Source: a virus | Lineage: Duplodnaviria > Heunggongvirae > Uroviricota > Caudoviricetes | IMG/VR virus record: IMGVR_UViG_2693429642_000007 | Coordinates: 1 to 5,684 of that record | DNA length: 5,684 nt | Strand: one strand, 5' to 3' | Part shown: positions 1-5,684 of the stretch, one piece after another | Position numbering within the stretch: position 1 is the stretch's first letter | How the letters are laid out: each line of letters opens with the position of its first letter | Program-made: the position numbers and the translations under genes | The notes under the pieces: model-generated | Told to the model about the DNA's origin: nothing | What the model saw: the letters and a program-made list of their open reading frames with translations, nothing else | Database searches by the model: none

Positions 1-2
1 AG

Positions 3-218
3 ATACAGCGCGTATACGATGAAAATCACAAGGTATACGGTGTGCGTAAAGTCTGGCGTCAGTTGTTACGGGAAGGAATCAGGGTGGCCAGATGTACAGT
101 GGCACGTCTCATGGCGGTTATGGGACTTGCCGGTGTTCTCCGGGGTAAAAAGGTCCGTACGACCATCAGCCGGAAAGCCGTTGCCGCAGGCGACCGCGTA
201 AACCGTCAGTTCGTGGCC
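3..218 (+). mobile_element. Truncated IS3-family transposase OrfB fragment (N-terminal region only; enters from left edge, similarity ends near 218)
   Basis: Frame-3 translation from position 3 reads IQRVYDENHKVYGVRKVWRQLLREGIRVARCTVARLMAVMGLAGVLRGKKVRTTISRKAVAAGDRVNRQFVA, which fits the conserved N-terminal pattern of IS3-family OrfB transposases (YG.RK.W..L.REGI.V.R..V.RLM...GL.G..RGK...TT). After codon 216-218 the translation (SFAYTMVARS...) no longer resembles transposase, where I would expect the catalytic-domain continuation. No terminal inverted repeat is visible in the window. The listed ORF 42..341 is this fragment read through into unrelated sequence. Confidence 0.55.
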
Positions 219-505
219 TCATTCGCGTACACAATGGTCGCTCGCTCCAGATTGCGTCTGTATTCTTTCTGCTGCCAGATCACGTCCTGTGCCATGAACT
301 TAACTGGCTTAGCGTCTTCTATGCGCTCAGGCGTTTCGTGAGTACCTTTAGCCTGAATCTGCGCTCTGCTTAGAGTAGGGCGGTGTAATACTTCTGAACT
401 TATTGCTTCTTCGCGGGCCAGTACGCCGTTAGCTAATGCCTTTACCTTTAAACGCTCACGACGACGAGAACGTGAATTGCCTTTGAACTGAGTTCTGCGT
501 GTCAT
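206..505 (-). CDS. N: N-like transcription antitermination protein (99 aa), with arginine-rich motif near the N-terminus
   Basis: ORF MTRRTQFKGNSRSRRRERLKVKALANGVL... has an arginine-rich motif at residues ~9-25 resembling the boxB-binding ARM of lambdoid N proteins (P22 N type, GNAKTRRHERRRK, from memory). Size is N-like (~100 aa). AGGAGG lies 5 nt upstream of the ATG (plus-strand cctcct at 511-516). It sits downstream of a boxB hairpin and the candidate pL, in the position of N in lambda. The last ~4 codons and the stop (206-218) lie inside the IS-derived sequence. Confidence 0.6.
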   Translation of the reverse strand: MTRRTQFKGNSRSRRRERLKVKALANGVLAREEAISSEVLHRPTLSRAQIQAKGTHETPERIEDAKPVKFMAQDVIWQQKEYRRNLERATIVYANEATN

Positions 506-670
506 ATAGACCTCCTGATGAACTTTGGTGGTGTGGTAGGTGGGAGACCCATTTCGACCTGTTTCGGCCTACTTCAATTCGGCAATAGTCCCGCAGGCCT
601 CGCCGCTTTACGTGCGACATATTCCCGTCCATGAACCCTTCACCACACCCCAAAGTTCACTTTGGTTATT

Positions 671-685
671 GCGCTTTGTCAGCGC
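671..685 (-). promoter_or_regulatory. nutL boxB RNA hairpin (GCGCU-GACAA-AGCGC on the leftward transcript)
   Basis: Plus strand reads GCGCTTTGTCAGCGC, so the minus-strand transcript reads GCGCUGACAAAGCGC: a 5-bp stem with a GACAA pentaloop, matching my recollection of the P22-type boxB. It lies ~165 nt upstream of the N start and ~60 nt downstream of the candidate pL start. A convincing boxA was not found. Confidence 0.55.
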
Positions 686-753
686 CGTAGATTCATATTC
701 GAATCGTTGTATATTCACCGCCCTGGTGAGTAGTGCGTCCTGCTGATGGGTGA

Positions 754-797
754 ACTTTATCGGAATGATAAATTAATGGCAATAGCAAAATGATAAA
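754..797 (-). promoter_or_regulatory. Candidate pL promoter with OL operators (17-bp palindromic sites, consensus TTTATC-N5-GATAAA)
   Basis: On the minus strand: -35 TTGCCA (plus 777-782), 17-nt spacer, -10 TAAAGT (plus 754-759). A perfect palindromic 17-mer TTTATCGGAATGATAAA (756-772) overlaps the spacer and -10. A second site AATAGCAAAATGATAAA (781-797) lies just upstream of the -35. The layout is identical to the pR/OR1 arrangement at 3252-3280. A possible weaker third site is at 853-869. Confidence 0.45.
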
Positions 798-973
798 TTC
801 TCTTGGTTTTCAAATATCGTATTGATTCTTATGGTGTTTTATTTTGTTGTAGGAATTCGACAGGATAAATAAAGAGATTTGAGGGAGATCTGGATTGCGT
901 TGTTTAGCAAGTTGTATCTATCAGTTTTTCAATAAATACAATCGATTATGTGTTTTTAGGTGGGCGAACGTGG

Positions 974-1002
974 GGCAAAGAAAACCCGGCGCTGAGGCCG
1001 GG
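974..1002 (-). terminator. Rho-independent terminator ending the leftward cI-higB-higA-secB operon
   Basis: Inverted repeat CCCGGC-gctgag-GCCGGG at 985-1002. On the minus strand the hairpin is followed by TTTTCTTTG (plus-strand A-rich 976-984). It lies 10 nt downstream of the secB-like stop codon (1012-1014). Confidence 0.5.
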
Positions 1003-1011
1003 TGGGGAATT

Positions 1012-1416
1012 TCACTTATTACTGTTCGTTTCCATGGGATTGGCCAAGAAATCAAAATAAGGCAGAGTGAACCTACCAAGGTTTGACATGAGGATAATTT
1101 GCTCGGCATATGTTTTTATATAGGGATATGCCATATTGGGAGCAATGGACCTTACCTCATATGATTTTGCCATTTCATGAGAAAAATCATCTTCTGACCG
1201 GAAGTCAAAGTCGTATGTGATGTCCATCTCAAGCCTGCCTTCAATAGTTACGGAGGCAAAATATCTCACTCTAAATAGCTTTGAATCCTTCACATTAGTG
1301 TAAAGTTCATTATTTAGATTAACGGTTGTTTTTATGGATTTTTTTGCTGTTGAATCGCCTTCTAGCCGTGTCATAACCAAGCGTTCAACTTTTTTGCTAA
1401 TGAGTTCAATTTTCAT
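1012..1416 (-). CDS. SecB-like chaperone (134 aa), third gene of a toxin-antitoxin-chaperone (TAC) module
   Basis: The C-terminal half ...SIAPNMAYPYIKTYAEQIILMSNLGRFTLPYFDFLANP aligns by eye with E. coli SecB ...[36 protein letters not shown] (PN..[FY]PY.[RK]....G.F..L.L...FD). The N-terminal region has a beta-strand-like pattern comparable to SecB. Its start ATG (1414-1416) overlaps the stop of the upstream antitoxin gene as ATGA, indicating translational coupling. Confidence 0.65.
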   Translation of the reverse strand: MKIELISKKVERLVMTRLEGDSTAKKSIKTTVNLNNELYTNVKDSKLFRVRYFASVTIEGRLEMDITYDFDFRSEDDFSHEMAKSYEVRSIAPNMAYPYIKTYAEQIILMSNLGRFTLPYFDFLANPMETNSNK

Positions 1417-2069
1417 GGTAATAATAAGTAATTTCCGTCAGAAGTCATTTCGTCATTCAGGTTGCTAGCCGCTGTGAAACTTGATGACAAGTTACTTATC
1501 AAAGAAAAAACATTCCGTTTTTCTTTGCATTTGCCGTTACCCCTTACTGCGCTGAACAACATTTTTGAAAAGTAAGATTCTGTAGCCTTTTCAGCGAAAT
1601 AAGCAGAAGGTGATGTGACGGCTGACTCACACCGAGCAATGACGCTAGTCATGGCTGTTTCTTCTTCCTCTGCGTCAACTAGGCTCCATTCAATTGCGCT
1701 CATATCTTGAATTAAGATATCTGCAGGAATTCCAAGTCCGTCATGTAGTCTACGGATCATTGAAAGACTTAATGGACGCTTACGATTTAAGACCTCAGAT
1801 ACTTTAGATGCTGAGCCAATGTATTGTTTCATATCGGCATAAGAGAGGCCTTGTTGATCCATACGGAACTTGATTGCTTCTATGGGATCTGGCTTGTCCA
1901 TAGGGAACTCGCGTGACTCATAGTGCTCGATAAGCAAGCCTAGTAGTTCAAACTCATCAAAATCTTCAGTTCCAGGTTGTAAATCACTAGACGCAAGTTC
2001 AATGAGCCTTTCCATAGCTGCAGCATGCTCTTCACTATTTTTAATGATGCGCCAGCTAGTTCGATTCAT
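1413..2069 (-). CDS. higA: HigA-like HTH antitoxin (218 aa) with ~95-aa C-terminal extension (candidate chaperone-addiction region)
   Basis: Residues ~1-120 (...EAIKFRMDQQGLSYADMKQYIGSASKVSEVLNRKRPLSLSMIRRLHDGLGIPADILIQD) resemble E. coli HigA/YgjM-type antitoxins (HTH_XRE near the C-terminus of the conserved part). Canonical HigA ends about there, whereas this ORF continues ~95 aa (acidic linker DAEEEETAM, then a Ser/Phe-rich tail). Its start overlaps the higB stop as ATGA (2066-2069) and its stop overlaps the secB-like start as ATGA. Confidence 0.7.
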   Translation of the reverse strand: MNRTSWRIIKNSEEHAAAMERLIELASSDLQPGTEDFDEFELLGLLIEHYESREFPMDKPDPIEAIKFRMDQQGLSYADMKQYIGSASKVSEVLNRKRPLSLSMIRRLHDGLGIPADILIQDMSAIEWSLVDAEEEETAMTSVIARCESAVTSPSAYFAEKATESYFSKMLFSAVRGNGKCKEKRNVFSLISNLSSSFTAASNLNDEMTSDGNYLLLP

Positions 2070-2353
2070 TTAAGCCTCCACTTGTCGTACTCTGCATGAG
2101 TTCCAACTCTTTCAACTATGACCATTCCTGCCTGGTAAACAACTTGGACAACGAGCCGATAGTTATTGCCTTTTATATTAAAAATTACCCTGTTGTTAGG
2201 AAGGAAGTCGGCAGAATTAAATCTATTCCGTATGTCTTGAGTCGTTTTCCAGTTTTCTCTTATCACTTCATCATACCAAGAGTCTAAAGCCCCCTTGGCC
2301 TGATTGTGCTTCTGGCTAAAACTGTGAAGCTTCTCTACGTTTAAGACCTTCAT
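2066..2353 (-). CDS. higB: HigB-like toxin (RelE/ParE superfamily mRNA interferase, 95 aa)
   Basis: MKVLNVEKLHSFSQKHNQAKGALDSWYDEVIRENWKTTQDIRNRFNSADFLPNNRVIFNIKGNNYRLVVQVVYQAGMVIVERVGTHAEYDKWRLK aligns by eye along its length with E. coli HigB (YgjN): ...FNVGGNELRVVAMVFF...IREVMTHKEYD. The toxin-first gene order is typical of higBA. Confidence 0.75.
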   Translation of the reverse strand: MKVLNVEKLHSFSQKHNQAKGALDSWYDEVIRENWKTTQDIRNRFNSADFLPNNRVIFNIKGNNYRLVVQVVYQAGMVIVERVGTHAEYDKWRLK

Positions 2354-2375
2354 AATCCGATTTTGTTCCCTCTTT

Positions 2376-2407
2376 GGGAATTATAGATTCATTTCCCATA
2401 AAGGGAA
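2376..2407 (-). promoter_or_regulatory. Candidate internal promoter/operator for the higB-higA-secB module
   Basis: A perfect TATAAT on the minus strand (plus-strand attata at 2380-2385) lies ~27 nt upstream of the higB ATG. The -35 is poor. A perfect inverted repeat TTCCC-ATAAA-GGGAA (2393-2407) sits adjacent, with a further GGGAA half-site at 2376-2380; this is a plausible antitoxin operator. Confidence 0.3.
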
Positions 2408-2489
2408 TCTGTATTTTTATCCAGAAATGCTATGTACATCACCCAAACGTCTCTTCAGGCCACTGGTTACCAGCTATGTGACGATGAAG

Positions 2490-3194
2490 TCACGAACTTT
2501 TCAGCCACTCCCTTGCCTCGATGTCATCCAGATGGCGAGATTGCTTCAGAATACCAGCTACATACTCCACCTTTGCTACTTGATGATAAGGCAACGTTAT
2601 AGGCCTGTGATCCTGGTTAATGCTTGTAAATTGGTATTCTCCATCTCTGTCATAGCCAAGAACCTTAATCATGTTGTGTCCTTCAACGGTTCTGACAAAC
2701 ACCTCATCACCCGGGAATACTTTGGTGTTAGGCTCAATGAGTACATATTCTCCTGATTTTATTCTGGGCCACATGCTGTCTCCTTTCACACGAAGACCAA
2801 AGGCATCTGGATCATCGCTATAAATTTTGAGCCACCCATCGCGCTCTTCGGTCATCTCGATGGCACCATCAACACCAAGAATTGCCTCACCAACCACGCG
2901 CACTAACCCTTTTCTTACCTGACCGACAAAAGTTAAAGAATCTGAGAATGATGCAATTGGTGTTACATCATGTACCAAATCAAGCCACCCATTAGGTAAC
3001 CCAAGCGCGGCTTCAAATTTTCTTGCTAGTTTATCCCCTATGTTTCGAGTGCTTTTTTCACCGGAGACTTGCGTGAGTTGAGAAGGGCTAACCCCAAGCT
3101 TATCGGCAAAGCTTGCATTAGTGTTACCCGCGATTTTTTTATGCTCATCTAGCAAAAACGCCAGATTCGATTTGCGAATATCTTTGTTTTCCAT
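2490..3194 (-). CDS. cI: CI-type prophage repressor (N-terminal HTH, C-terminal S24/LexA-like peptidase domain; 234 aa)
   Basis: The N-terminus has an HTH (...FADKLGVSPSQLTQVSGEK...). The C-terminal domain has the S24 signature GDSMWP (Ser nucleophile) and a Lys ~37 residues later (MIKVLG). It is divergently arranged from the cro-like gene across an operator-rich intergenic region. A GAGGG RBS lies upstream of the ATG. Confidence 0.85.
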   Translation of the reverse strand: MENKDIRKSNLAFLLDEHKKIAGNTNASFADKLGVSPSQLTQVSGEKSTRNIGDKLARKFEAALGLPNGWLDLVHDVTPIASFSDSLTFVGQVRKGLVRVVGEAILGVDGAIEMTEERDGWLKIYSDDPDAFGLRVKGDSMWPRIKSGEYVLIEPNTKVFPGDEVFVRTVEGHNMIKVLGYDRDGEYQFTSINQDHRPITLPYHQVAKVEYVAGILKQSRHLDDIEAREWLKSS

Positions 3195-3307
3195 CTCACA
3201 ATTTTCCCTCTATTTAGCAAATGGATAAATACGCAATATGATAAATTTACATTGCGGTTGATTTATCAAAATGGTAAAGTTGTTCTGTGTGATAAACGGA
3301 GGCACTA
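3195..3307. promoter_or_regulatory. Immunity switch region: OR operators with divergent pRM (leftward) and pR (rightward)
   Basis: Repeated 17-mers share the GATAAA / TTTATC half-site: TTTAGCAAATGGATAAA (3213-3229), ATACGCAATATGATAAA (3229-3245, weak left half) and TTTATCAAAATGGTAAA (3263-3279). Candidate pR: -35 TTGCGG (3252-3257), 17-nt spacer, -10 TAAAGT (3275-3280), with the operator overlapping the -10 exactly as at pL. The cro RBS GGAGG is at 3298-3302. The pRM hexamers could not be placed confidently. Confidence 0.5.
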
Positions 3308-3541
3308 ATGAGTAATGAACTACTACGCTGGCGAAAAGAGGCTTCTAGCGAGGAATGGAAGCGACTCGCCGCATTAGCGAAAACTTCAGTTGGCTATCTT
3401 GACCAGATTGCATATGGATTTCGAAGAGCTTCCCCTGATAAAGCGAATGCAATCGAAGAAGCTACTCGTAATTTCACGGGTTATAAACCTGTGAAAAAGG
3501 AAAACCTAGTGTTCGTATCGCGTAGAGCATCGGCTGCATAA
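3308..3541 (+). CDS. cro: Cro-like small HTH regulator (77 aa), first gene of the rightward early operon
   Basis: Called by position: divergent from cI, immediately downstream of the OR/pR candidate, with GGAGG 5 nt upstream of the ATG. The protein is small and basic with an HTH-like stretch (LAALAKTSVGYLDQIAYG). It does not resemble lambda or P22 Cro from memory, so family assignment is uncertain. Confidence 0.55.
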   Translation: MSNELLRWRKEASSEEWKRLAALAKTSVGYLDQIAYGFRRASPDKANAIEEATRNFTGYKPVKKENLVFVSRRASAA

Positions 3542-3548
3542 GTAACAC

Positions 3549-3594
3549 CGCTATTTTCACAATGGACATTCGTCCTACGTCGCTGACAAAGCGA
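3549..3594 (+). promoter_or_regulatory. nutR: boxB hairpin UCGCU-GACAA-AGCGA (3580-3594) with a possible boxA-like CGCTATTT (3549-3556)
   Basis: TCGCTGACAAAGCGA has a 5-bp stem and the same GACAA loop as the nutL boxB at 671-685. It lies just downstream of the cro stop, as nutR does in lambdoid phages. The boxA assignment is weak: one mismatch to CGCTCTTT and an unusually long 24-nt spacer. Confidence 0.5.
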
Positions 3595-3623
3595 GTCCCA
3601 ATATATCTGACCAACTAAGGCCA

Positions 3624-3641
3624 TATGCGTTTCCACGCATA
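3624..3641 (+). terminator. Hairpin between cro and cII (possible tR1-like pause or terminator structure)
   Basis: TATGCGT-ttcc-ACGCATA is a perfect 7-bp stem with a 4-nt loop, followed by CCTTTCAAC, which is only weakly U-rich. tR1 is rho-dependent in lambda, so function is uncertain. Confidence 0.2.
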
Positions 3642-3679
3642 CCTTTCAACTAACTATTCACTATTGGAAATATTAAGAA

Positions 3680-4045
3680 ATGACACAAACAAGTTACAGC
3701 AAACTATCACAGCGTGACGTTGATCGCGCAGAAACAGATTTACTCATCAACCTATCAACGCTTACCCAGCGCGGTCTGGCAAAGATGATTGGCTGTCATG
3801 AATCGAAGATAAGCAGAACGGACTGGAGACTTACCCAGCGCGGTCTGGCAAAGATGATTGGCTGTCATGAATCGAAGATAAGCAGAACGGACTGGAGATT
3901 TATTGCTTCGGTCTTGTGTGCTTTCGGAATGGCATCAGACATCAGTCCGATTAGCAGGGCTTTTAAGTATGCGCTTGCTGAAATCACAAAGAAAAAACGC
4001 CCGGCGGCAACCGAGCGTTCTGAACAAATCCAGATGGAATTCTGA
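3680..4045 (+). CDS. cII: CII-like lysogeny-establishment activator (121 aa) containing an internal 23-aa tandem duplication
   Basis: The C-terminus ...[17 protein letters not shown] matches the lambda CII C-terminus as I recall it. The N-terminal and HTH regions are divergent from lambda. Without the duplication the length would be 98 aa, against 97 for lambda CII. Position after cro and nutR is as expected. Confidence 0.8.
3761..3898 (+). repeat. Perfect 69-bp direct tandem duplication (2 copies: 3761-3829 and 3830-3898) inside cII, in frame
   Basis: Both copies read cttacccagcgcggtctggcaaagatgattggctgtcatgaatcgaagataagcagaacggactggaga with no mismatch (checked base by base). This duplicates the peptide [23 protein letters not shown]. 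Confidence 0.95.
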
Positions 4046-4067
4046 GGGAATTACTGGATCAATCCAC
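3991..4067 (-). ncRNA. oop: OOP-like antisense RNA (candidate), with its terminator hairpin at 3998-4017 inside the cII 3' end
   Basis: On the minus strand CGCUCGG-UUGCCG-CCGGGCG (7-bp stem with one G-U) is followed by UUUUUU (plus-strand A run 3992-3997). This matches the lambda oop terminator arrangement, which is antisense to the cII 3' end. A CATAAT -10 on the minus strand (plus 4075-4080, overlapping the ATG at 4078) sits where lambda pO lies, but the -35 is poor. The 5' end is inferred by analogy only. Confidence 0.35.
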
Positions 4068-4077
4068 AGGAGTAATT

Positions 4078-4224
4078 ATGACAAAACAACTCAGTCCTTA
4101 CCAGGACAAAATTCACAAACACATACTACGTGATCGCTTCCTGTCCAGCTTCAAGCAGCCTGGTCGATTCCGGGCTGGGTTGGAAAAAGTGAAGCTGATG
4201 CAGAAGGAGAAAGGTCATGAGTAA
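4078..4224 (+). CDS. Small hypothetical protein (48 aa, basic) between cII and O
   Basis: ATG at 4078 is preceded by AGGAG (4068-4072) with 5-nt spacing. It reads [48 protein letters not shown], with stop TAA at 4222-4224 overlapping the O start by 8 nt. It is absent from the supplied ORF track, presumably because it is below the length cutoff. The start context matches the lambda O start region (caggagt.attATGACAAA) as I recall it. Confidence 0.35.
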
Positions 4225-5122
4225 TCTTGCAACCGTAACACATTTAAGGCCTTCACAACGGCCTGTGGAGCGTCGTGTGGCAGAAGTTGAAGATGGTTAT
4301 ACCCGTCTTGCAAATGCCCTGTATGAAGAGCTTATCGGCGCAGATTTAACGAAAAATCAGAGCAAGGTTGCCCACGCCATATGCCGTAAAACATACGGCT
4401 ACGGTAAAAAGATGGATCGCATCTCTGATAGTCAGTTAGCTCAAATTACCAGGCTGCCAAGACAGAAGGTAAACAAGGCCAAGAATGAGCTTATCGCGAT
4501 GAAGGTTATCCTTCGCGAAGGCCAGCAAATCGGGCCTAACAAGAACATCGAGGAATGGCAAATCGAAGGGTGTCACTACTCTGGTGATAATGTCACTGCA
4601 TTGGTGACAAAAAGTGTCACCAAAACGGTGACAGCGCTGTCACCAAAACAGGGACACACAAAAGAAACTATTACAAAAGAAAAAAGAAAAGATTATTCGT
4701 CCGAGAATTCTGGCGAATCCTCTGACCAGCCAGAAAACGATCTTTCTGTGGTTAAACCGGATGCTGCAATTCAGAGCGGCAGCAAGTGGGGAACAGCAGA
4801 AGACCTGACCGCCGCAGAGTGGATGTTTGACATGGTGAAGACCATCGCACCATCAGCCAGAAAACCGAATTTTGCAGGGTGGGCTAACGATATCCGCCTG
4901 ATGCGTGAACGTGACGGACGTAACCACCGCGATATGTGTGTGCTTTTCCGCTGGGCCTGCCAGGACAACTTCTGGTCCGGTAACGTGCTGAGTCCGGCCA
5001 AACTCCGCGACAAGTGGACCCAGCTCGAAATCAACCGTAACAAGCAACAGGCAGGCGTGACAGCCAGCAAACCAAAACCCGACCTGACAAACACTGACTG
5101 GATTTACGGGGTGGATTTATGA
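4217..5122 (+). CDS. O: O-like replication initiator protein (301 aa); divergent N-terminal iteron-binding domain, lambda-like C-terminal domain
   Basis: The N-terminus aligns with lambda O (..EDGYTRLAN.. vs ..DDGYARLSN.., GADLTK, RKTYG, MDRI.DSQL, GPNKNI.EW). The C-terminal ~110 aa ([101 protein letters not shown]) is essentially the lambda O C-terminus from memory. RBS AAGGAGAAAGG precedes the ATG. The stop overlaps the P start as ATGA. Confidence 0.9.
4571..4698. promoter_or_regulatory. Origin of replication within O: four 19-bp iterons (TGTCAC-N7-GTGACA type) followed by an AT-rich region
   Basis: Iterons are tgtcactactctggtgata (4571-4589), tgtcactgcattggtgaca (4591-4609), tgtcaccaaaacggtgaca (4615-4633) and tgtcaccaaaacagggaca (4638-4656). 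An AT-rich tract aaaagaaactattacaaaagaaaaaagaaaagattatt (~4657-4698) follows. This is the same architecture as the lambda ori (four iterons plus AT-rich region inside O), but with a different iteron sequence from the lambda TCCCTC...GAGGGA type. Confidence 0.7.
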
Positions 5123-5684
5123 AAAACATCGCCGCACAGATGGTTAACTTTGACCGTGAGCAGATGCGTCGGATCGCCAACAACATGCCGGAACAGTACG
5201 ACGAAAAGCCGCAGGTACAACAGGTAGCGCAGATCATCAACGGTGTGTTCAGCCAGTTACTGGCAACTTTCCCGGCGAGTCTGGCTAACCGGGACCAGAA
5301 CGAACTGAATGAAATCCGCCGCCAGTGGGTTCTGGCTTTCCGGGAAAACGGGATCACCTCGATGGAACAGGTTAACGCAGGAATGCGCGTAGCCCGTCGG
5401 CAGAATCGACCATTTCTTCCATCACCCGGGCAGTTTGTTGCATGGTGCCGGGAAGAAGCATCCGTTATCGCCGAACTGCCAAACGTCAGCGAGCTGGTTG
5501 ATATGGTTTACGAGTATTACCGGAAGCGTGGCCTGTATCCGGATGCAGAGTCTTATCCGTGGAAATCAAACGCGCACTACTGGCTGGTTACCAACCTGTA
5601 CCAGAACATGCGGGCCAATGCGCTGACTGACGCGGAATTACGGCGCAAGGCTGCCGATGAACTGACCTGTATGATAGCACGAAT
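5119..5684 (+). CDS. P: P-like replication protein (DnaB helicase loader), 5' partial: continues beyond the window end
   Basis: The ATG at 5119 overlaps the O stop. The translation [115 protein letters not shown]... closely matches lambda P as I recall it. The frame stays open to the window end (no stop), which is why it is missing from the ORF track. Confidence 0.9.
   Translation, partial: MKNIAAQMVNFDREQMRRIANNMPEQYDEKPQVQQVAQIINGVFSQLLATFPASLANRDQNELNEIRRQWVLAFRENGITSMEQVNAGMRVARRQNRPFLPSPGQFVAWCREEASVIAELPNVSELVDMVYEYYRKRGLYPDAESYPWKSNAHYWLVTNLYQNMRANALTDAELRRKAADELTCMIAR

Follow-up and report, generated by a model that had tools for sequence, protein, structure and literature searches.

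How are the early promoters of the prophage in IMG/VR virus record IMGVR_UViG_2693429642_000007 controlled, and what defines its immunity? The window analyzed here comprises positions 1–5,684 of that record (5,684 nt). A first-pass annotation of this DNA described one promoter–operator layout twice, about 2.5 kb apart and in opposite orientation, each copy built on a TTTATC-N5-GATAAA palindrome, and proposed that a repressor recognizing TTTATC/GATAAA half-sites acts at both promoters, pL and pR. The regulatory DNA of interest lies just upstream of an N-like antiterminator gene (~754–830) and in the cI–cro intergenic region (113 bp, 3195–3307). We conclude that the window very probably carries the genetic switch of a lambdoid prophage of H-19B immunity. 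The repressor–operator interpretation of the palindromes is supported by gene context, by diverged relatives and by the annotation of H-19B-type sequences.

Positions 754–782 read TTGCCA-TTAA-TTTATCATTCCGATAAA-GT on the minus strand and positions 3252–3280 read TTGCGG-TTGA-TTTATCAAAATGGTAAA-GT on the plus strand, exactly as annotated. Both consist of TTGnnn, 4 nt and a 17-mer whose last four bases together with GT form the −10 hexamer TAAAGT, with a −35/−10 spacer of 17 nt in each case; the additional 17-mers described at 781–797, 3213–3229 and 3229–3245 are likewise present. The layout called identical is so over the 29-bp core. Beyond it the two sides differ, since the second site lies 25 bp from the first on the left (OL1) but 33 bp from the first on the right (OR1), with its consensus half oppositely oriented. 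Two further sites, at 813–829 (OL3) and 3280–3296 (OR0), had been overlooked.

The motif search across the window that had been suggested as a check returned TTTATC-N5-GATAAA with at most one mismatch three times (756–772, 3213–3229 and 3262–3278), all in the two regulatory regions, against 0.01 expected from dinucleotide-preserving shuffles; none of 200 shuffles reaches three. At three mismatches or fewer there are ten matches, compared to 3.5 expected. The hexamer GATAAA occurs 11 times against 3.9 expected, with 8 of the 11 copies falling within 756–869 or 3224–3296. Aligned in register, the pL and pR 29-mers agree at 21 of 29 positions. Of the 11,312 29-mers in the window, pL itself excepted, none matches pL better than pR does (Bonferroni P ~0.0015), and the best match of pR is in turn pL.

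Genes were taken from an open reading frame listing and from domain searches (Pfam, PHROG). The status of the two promoters as early promoters follows from the divergence of cI (2490–3194, minus strand) and cro (3308–3541, plus strand) from the intergenic region, as in a lambda-type switch, and from the position of the N-like gene downstream of 754–782 on the minus strand. The cI product (234 residues) contains a C-terminal LexA-like S24 autopeptidase domain (Peptidase_S24, E=3.8e-16; phrog_4, transcriptional repressor, E=3.7e-38), and the cro product (77 residues) matches phrog_35 (E=4.4e-7). Multiple similar pseudo-palindromic operators overlap pR and pL, as such a switch requires. Additionally, a boxB-like 13-mer, CGCTGACAAAGCG, occurs exactly twice (0 expected), so that each promoter has one copy downstream of it, oriented as transcribed: at 672–684 on the minus strand, ~70 nt downstream of pL, and at 3581–3593 on the plus strand, between cro and cII. 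These hairpins fit nutL and nutR and support calling the two promoters pL and pR.

Comparison with known lambdoid immunity groups, also suggested at the outset, identified the operators as H-19B type. Window positions 740–880, which include OL, match the H-19B record AF034975.3 exactly, and OR (3195–3307) is identical to it at 112 of 113 positions; the only difference, T for A at 3258, is outside any operator, within the 4 nt that link the −35 to OR1, and is polymorphic (T/A) among natural copies. CI is identical to the H-19B CI of that record at 233 of 234 residues, N-terminal DNA-binding domain included, with a sole change, F83C, in the inter-domain linker, and Cro is identical to H-19B Cro at 76 of 77 residues. 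The stretch 700–3320 is 99.1% identical to phages BP-4795 and ST2-8624, to many phages carrying Shiga toxin (Stx) genes of the Stx1a or Stx2a type and to ~80 E. coli genomes, including strain H19, where the region lies inside a Stx1a prophage ~7 kb upstream of stxA1a and stxB1a. Record GQ499358 ("immunity region; similar to bacteriophage H19-B") annotates repressor binding sites that map exactly onto window coordinates, namely OL1 at 756–772, OL2 at 781–797, OL3 at 813–829, OR3 at 3213–3229, OR2 at 3237–3253, OR1 at 3262–3278 and OR0 at 3280–3296. The H-19B immunity region in GenBank AF034975 is reportedly the work of Neely and Friedman in 1998 and of Shi and Friedman in 2001. According to a review (PMC8065619), the operator and early-promoter regions of H-19B were studied experimentally by Shi and Friedman (2001) and there are four OR sites; PMC1151598 refers to the H-19B operators as "sequences known to bind" the cI homologue. 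A full-text literature search with the operator sequences gave no match. The operators are thus real but already known as those of H-19B immunity, and the result is a rediscovery.

Diverged relatives were found by a search with the CI N-terminal domain, which also returned many near-identical E. coli copies. The set is made up of three Pantoea prophages and two groups of IMG/VR contigs, one of four and one of ~28, with 30 distinct OR and 27 distinct OL sequences; N-terminal identity to the window CI, measured directly in the four relatives first recovered, is 54–65%. The OR sequences align to the window without indels between sites. Their left part reads CAT (the cI start), 6 variable nt, ATTCTC, 6 nt and TTTAGCAAnnnGATAAA; the right part reads ATAyGCnnnTTGCTAAA (sharing the final A of TTTAGCAAnnnGATAAA), 6 variable nt, TTGnnn, 4 variable nt, TTTA(G/T)CATAA(A/C)GCTAAA and CT. 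OL reads TAAATCATTnnGCTAAA (OL3), 16 variable nt, TTTAGCATTTTGCTATT (OL2), GCCA plus 4 variable nt, TTTAGCATAA(A/C)GCTAAA (OL1) and TT, reproducing the OL3, OL2, −35 and OL1/−10 arrangement of the window with spacings of 25 and 33 bp, compared to 25 and 32 bp in the window. All relatives have the −35, 4 variable nt, the 17-mer and a −10 built from the last four bases of that 17-mer.

In these related genomes, where a check of the motif had also been proposed, the half-sites are invariant while the 5-bp centres and linkers vary. Per-column entropy (half-site and centre, respectively) is 0.00 and 0.45 bit for OR3 (3213–3229), 0.02 and 0.57 bit for 3229–3245 in the 30 relatives, and 0.03 and 0.16 bit for OR1 (3262–3278). 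This pattern of invariant halves and variable centre is seen neither at the OR2 of GQ499358 (3237–3253; 0.35 and 0.21 bit) nor at that of KU238070 (~3234–3250; 0.52 and 0.00 bit), nor at OR0 (3280–3296; 0.74 and 0.72 bit). The 4-nt linker and inter-operator DNA are also variable. The footprint left in the relatives supports the half-site model as well as the OL3 of GenBank. The H-19B operator architecture belongs to a wider, uncharacterized family reaching Pantoea phages.

On the left, OL1 (TTTATCGGAATGATAAA, 756–772) is a perfect palindrome with no mismatches that spans the pL spacer and four bases of the −10. It is 100% identical to H-19B, is labelled "OL1 repressor binding site" in GQ499358, and has a counterpart with invariant halves in the 27 relatives. 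The −35 of pL (TTGCCA, 777–782, minus strand; TTGCCA, TTGCTA or TTGCAA in relatives) takes its first two bases from the last two of OL2, and the −10 (TAAAGT, 754–759, minus strand) corresponds to TAAATT at the same position in relatives. A generic promoter scan found pL as TTGCCA-17-TAAAGT (9/12). OL2 (AATAGCAAAATGATAAA, 781–797), annotated in GQ499358, lies 25 bp centre-to-centre from OL1 and overlaps the −35 by 2 bp; its counterpart in relatives, TTTAGCATTTTGCTATT, is invariant and has the same 25-bp spacing. OL3 (AATATCGTATTGATTCT, 813–829), also annotated there, is a weak match 32 bp centre-to-centre from OL2, and is positionally homologous to the conserved TAAATCATTnnGCTAAA located 33 bp from the OL2 of relatives. 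A possible fourth OL site at 853–869 (GAATTCGACAGGATAAA), with one perfect half, is unsupported, as relatives carry an upstream terminator there and no counterpart. Just upstream of OL3, the window (~835–843; AAAATAAAA on the minus strand) shares with every relative a conserved A-rich block, AAAAATAAA, which might act as an UP-like element, bend the DNA or bind a host factor.

On the right, OR1 (TTTATCAAAATGGTAAA, 3262–3278) has one mismatch to the palindrome and spans the pR spacer and four bases of the −10, and the cI-proximal OR3 (TTTAGCAAATGGATAAA, 3213–3229) also has one mismatch; both are annotated in GQ499358. The −35 of pR (TTGCGG, 3252–3257, plus strand) is weak, with TTG kept in all relatives (TTGTTA, TTGCTA or TTGATT), and the −10 (TAAAGT, 3275–3280, plus strand) is TAAACT in relatives. 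A fourth right-hand site over the expected pR start, OR0 (TTGTTCTGTGTGATAAA, 3280–3296), has two mismatches and is labelled "OR0 repressor binding site" in GQ499358. It is without conservation in relatives (half-site entropy as given above), being confined to the H-19B lineage. In the first-pass annotation the second right-hand operator is ATACGCAATATGATAAA (3229–3245), which has one bp in common with OR3 and is centred 33 bp from the centre of OR1; it shows four mismatches to the perfect palindrome, and only its GATAAA half is consensus. With this placement, the centres of neighbouring sites are 16, 33 and 18 bp apart in OR, and 25 and 32 bp apart in OL. An alternative pR with TTTACA (3246–3251) as −35 was rejected: spacers to −10-like hexamers would be 12, 15 or 23 nt, and the relatives do not keep TTTACA.

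Where the second right-hand operator lies is the point on which the sources diverge. It may instead be the GenBank OR2 at 3237–3253 (TATGATAAATTTACATT), in which case 3229–3245 would not be a discrete site. GQ499358 explicitly labels 3237–3253 "OR2 repressor binding site", and this position gives lambda-like spacings of 25 and 24 bp, mirrors the 25-bp OL1–OL2 spacing, would end with the TT of the −35 just as OL2 does, and has some dyad symmetry of its own (ATGnnAAATTnnCAT). However, it agrees with the TTTATC/GATAAA half-sites at only 5 of 12 positions, the perfect GATAAA at 3240–3245 would be out of register with it, and its right half falls in the most variable OR DNA of the 30 relatives, where single columns reach an entropy of 1.8 bit; its half-sites average 0.35 bit, against 0.02 bit for those of 3229–3245. 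Nor are the GQ499358 coordinates firm, since KU238070 puts OR2 3 bp away. These two records of the same phage, ST2-8624, disagree on the OR positions, oR1 and oR3 of KU238070 being shifted by 2 bp and oR2 by 3 bp relative to GQ499358. We consider it rather unlikely that 3237–3253 is the operator.

The reverse complement of 3229–3245, TTTATCATATTGCGTAT, matches OL2 (TTTATCATTTTGCTATT) at 13 of 17 positions. E. coli Stx phages and Pantoea prophages alike keep the geometry of this site (16 bp to OR3, 33 bp to OR1) strictly, and the 16-bp centre-to-centre distance puts 3229–3245 and OR3 on opposite helix faces. The comparative data favour 3229–3245 over the annotated OR2. The bolder proposal, that the public H-19B-type OR2 (3237–3253 or ~3234–3250) is misplaced and that 3229–3245 is the true site, giving a lambda-type switch with distinct wiring, is put forward only tentatively; we would sooner expect it to fail than to hold. 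If true, such wiring might help to explain autoregulation by repressors with a non-cooperative 933W-type C-terminal domain. If Shi and Friedman already placed OR2 at 3229–3245, there is nothing new in it.

Several observations weigh against reading the repeated motif as the CI operators of pL and pR. The pR −35, TTGCGG, matches TTGACA at only three of six positions, and the generic promoter scan reports no pR. The matches at OL3 and OR0 are weak, and relatives do not keep OR0. The public positions of OR2 (GQ499358, 3237–3253; KU238070, ~3234–3250) conflict with each other and with our placement at 3229–3245. The HTH_3 domain of CI is below threshold in Pfam (17.9 versus a 23-bit cut-off; E=0.0033 on the isolated domain), and searches of PDB and NCBIfam with the CI DNA-binding domain gave no informative match. 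Pseudoazurin matches to this domain are spurious, and the phage repressor CI 7nkv was recovered only at E=0.063. Finally, the relatives share ancestry and are not independent samples, so that invariance partly reflects kinship. What carries weight is that columns next to the invariant half-sites vary strongly, by up to 1.8 bit.

Two other accounts of the motif can be set against its recognition by CI. It might arise simply from the AT-richness of promoter DNA and the constraint imposed by the −10 (TAAAGT), without being a protein-binding site, with the likeness of pL and pR due to chance or to a recent duplication. The regions are indeed AT-rich, GATAAA overlaps −10-like sequence at OL1 and OR1, and the two public site annotations disagree. 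However, the three near-perfect palindromes exceed the shuffled expectation of 0.01, OR3, OL2 and 3229–3245 are not at any −10 of pR or pL, and conserved half-sites with variable centres are the signature of dimeric helix-turn-helix operators. Repressor binding in H-19B is also reported in PMC1151598 and PMC8065619. We regard this account as highly improbable and already effectively refuted. Alternatively, a second helix-turn-helix protein, the HigA-like product of 1413–2069, is encoded between cI and pL, and might be the main ligand of the sites in place of CI and Cro. However, higBA has distinct palindromes of its own (TTCCC-N5-GGGAA, twice) directly upstream of higB. The distance from the cI start to OL1 in relatives, ~1.5–3.3 kb, is variable, so the intervening cargo probably differs among them, yet the operators are the same. 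Every relative locus encodes a CI N-terminal domain, as follows from the loci having been found through that domain. Recognition mainly by the HigA-like protein is hardly credible.

By analogy with lambda, CI, with an N-terminal helix-turn-helix and a C-terminal LexA-like S24 self-cleaving domain, would bind as a dimer and Cro would bind the same sites. An operator would consist of 17 bp, with two 6-bp half-sites (TTTATC and GATAAA) around a 5-bp non-specific centre; we infer the exact site boundaries. OL1 and OR1 begin 4 bp after the −35 and supply the first four bases of TAAAGT. As they cover the spacer and these four bases, one bound dimer would occlude RNA polymerase. pL would be further covered by OL2, over 2 bp of the −35, and by the weak upstream OL3, whereas at pR it is OR0 that would lie over the start point. 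Residues 81–234 of CI are ~95% identical to 933W-type repressors, whose C-terminal domain is reported in PMC3202840 to be shared and not to support cooperative binding. The operator spacings may thus not need to serve dimer–dimer contacts, and the pairwise cooperative binding of the lambda type may be lacking in this switch.

For cI itself, we infer a pRM at 3201–3229 on the minus strand, with TTTATC (3229–3224, in OR3) as −35, a 17-nt spacer and GAAAAT (3206–3201) as −10. The pattern TTTATC-17 nt-GAGAAT-6 nt-ATG is invariant in the 30 relatives, in which the 6 nt before the ATG vary. As the −10 is located 6 nt before the cI ATG (3194), the cI mRNA would be leaderless, as in lambda, starting at or near the A of the ATG. 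OR3 holds the pRM −35 and the upstream part of its spacer, and thus would give autorepression. The 3229–3245 site abuts this −35 and is centred at ~−43, where lambda CI activates pRM; by analogy, it would be activating. The generic promoter scan also gave a plus-strand TTAGCA-17-TATGAT (3214–3242), composed of operator sequence and probably incidental.

As judged from its genes, the window is a lambdoid immunity and replication region. Leftward of OR lie cI, cargo genes, OL and pL, nutL and a 3′-truncated N; rightward lie cro, nutR, cII, O and P. The left end (1–217, plus strand) is an insertion sequence (IS)-family transposase fragment (HTH_21), and the N-like gene (206–505, minus strand; phrog_271, "anti-termination protein N-like", E=5.5e-21) is the first gene of the pL operon. 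Homology of N to BP-4795 and ST2-8624, whose records annotate an N of 127 or 149 residues, begins at 218. Left of that position lies DNA from the interior of a gene for an IS3-like transposase rather than an IS end, so that the junction has the look of a deletion or rearrangement. Antitermination is probably defective in this prophage. The N leader, which runs from the boxB-like hairpin to the N start codon (510–645), is a highly diverged allele compared to BP-4795 and ST2-8624, while its flanks (OL and most of N) are near-identical to theirs, which makes the leader a mosaic junction.

Between pL and cI, the minus strand carries, in order of window coordinates, an intrinsic terminator (984–1003), orf134 (1012–1416; full-length match to PHROG 10298 of unknown function, E=2.9e-80), the HigA-like gene (1413–2069) and higB (2066–2353). 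There is a 4-bp overlap between orf134 and the stop codon of the higA-like gene, and the terminator comes after orf134, which is thus probably a cargo gene expressed in the lysogen. Two perfect TTCCC-N5-GGGAA palindromes (2366–2380 and 2393–2407, 27 bp apart; 0 expected by chance) flank a minus-strand TATAAT (2385–2380) just upstream of higB, and together with it are probably the HigA operator and promoter of the toxin–antitoxin cargo between cI and pL.

Downstream of cro, the plus strand encodes cII (3680–4045), a DUF2740 gene (4078–4224), O (4217–5122) and P (from 5119). cII contains a perfect 69-bp in-frame tandem duplication (3761–3829 and 3830–3898), giving 121 residues compared to 98 in BP-4795, ST2-8624 and H-19B; the duplicated segment is 23 residues long, and the weak helix-turn-helix-family Pfam matches of cII fall there. 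The same duplication is found in IMG/VR contig IMGVR_UViG_2660238346_000006, which matches 604–5684 with one mismatch. No full-length match to the window was found among E. coli complete genomes, the best of which cover 218–5684 at 98.4% identity. With a truncated N and a duplicated cII, this prophage copy is probably defective or decayed. At the 5′ end of cII, facing leftward, TTGCTGTAACTTGT (TTGC-N6-TTGT; 3689–3702, minus strand) resembles the CII-binding repeat of lambda pRE. O is strongly diverged from BP-4795 O over 4080–4660, the O/P region being mosaic, and contains repeated GGTGACA/TGTCACC elements (~4560–4650), several of them flagged as hairpins by a terminator scan, which look like the iterons of a lambda-type replication origin.

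In Stx-converting phages, the CI–operator interaction sets prophage stability and hence Shiga-toxin release, and the immunity type of a prophage predicts superinfection immunity and induction behaviour. For the window, the result is a classification (H-19B immunity, apparently decayed), from which no new biology follows. Its modest added value is a sharper operator map, with 3229–3245 preferred over the GenBank OR2, support for OL3 and a lineage-specific OR0, together with a wider operator family.

H-19B is a Stx1-converting lambdoid phage whose immunity is also found in BP-4795, ST2-8624 and many phages of the Stx1a and Stx2a types. The H19, BP-4795 and ST2-8624 prophages have the same cargo as the window (higB, the higA-like gene and orf134) between cI and pL. 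Unlike these H-19B-type phages, the window copy has an N truncated at 218, a divergent N leader, the cII duplication, a mosaic O/P region and the polymorphism at 3258.

The window resembles lambda in that cI and cro diverge, pseudo-palindromic operators of 17 bp overlap pR and pL, OL has three parts and lies ~2.5 kb from OR, accessory genes separate cI from pL, and N/nut antitermination lies downstream; a leaderless pRM transcript, with an operator abutting the pRM −35, is predicted as well. However, its half-site is unrelated to the TATCACCGC-type half-site of lambda, its OR has four sites, and its CI C-terminal domain is of the 933W type. Lambda operators are spaced by 23–24 bp, compared to 16, 33 and 18 bp (OR) and 25 and 32 bp (OL) in the window.

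The relationship to the 933W and phi24B repressors is confined to the C-terminal domain just mentioned (residues 81–234). The N-terminal DNA-binding domain is unrelated, and searches that returned 933W-type phages matched only the C-terminal residues. PMC8065619 gives 933W only two OL sites. Phage mEp043, whose repressor is labelled "similar to repressor protein CI of 933W" in GenBank, has operator-like TACCTnCAGGTAAA-type repeats at OR and pL; at 50% overall identity its CI was considered as a comparator and set aside, as the similarity is mainly C-terminal and repeats of this other type are uninformative on the half-sites.

The Pantoea prophages (P. rodasii LMG 26273, Pantoea sp. alder81 and Ca. 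P. formicae) and ~30 IMG/VR contigs have the same OL, OR and pRM architecture as the window, and their Cro is homologous to the window Cro. Their preferred half-site is TTTAGC/GCTAAA, compared to TTTATC/GATAAA in the window, and the recognition-helix region reads SASQFSQLLG, compared to SPSQLTQVSG in the window CI. Unlike the window, they have no OR0, and the Pantoea CI proteins carry a different C-terminal domain.

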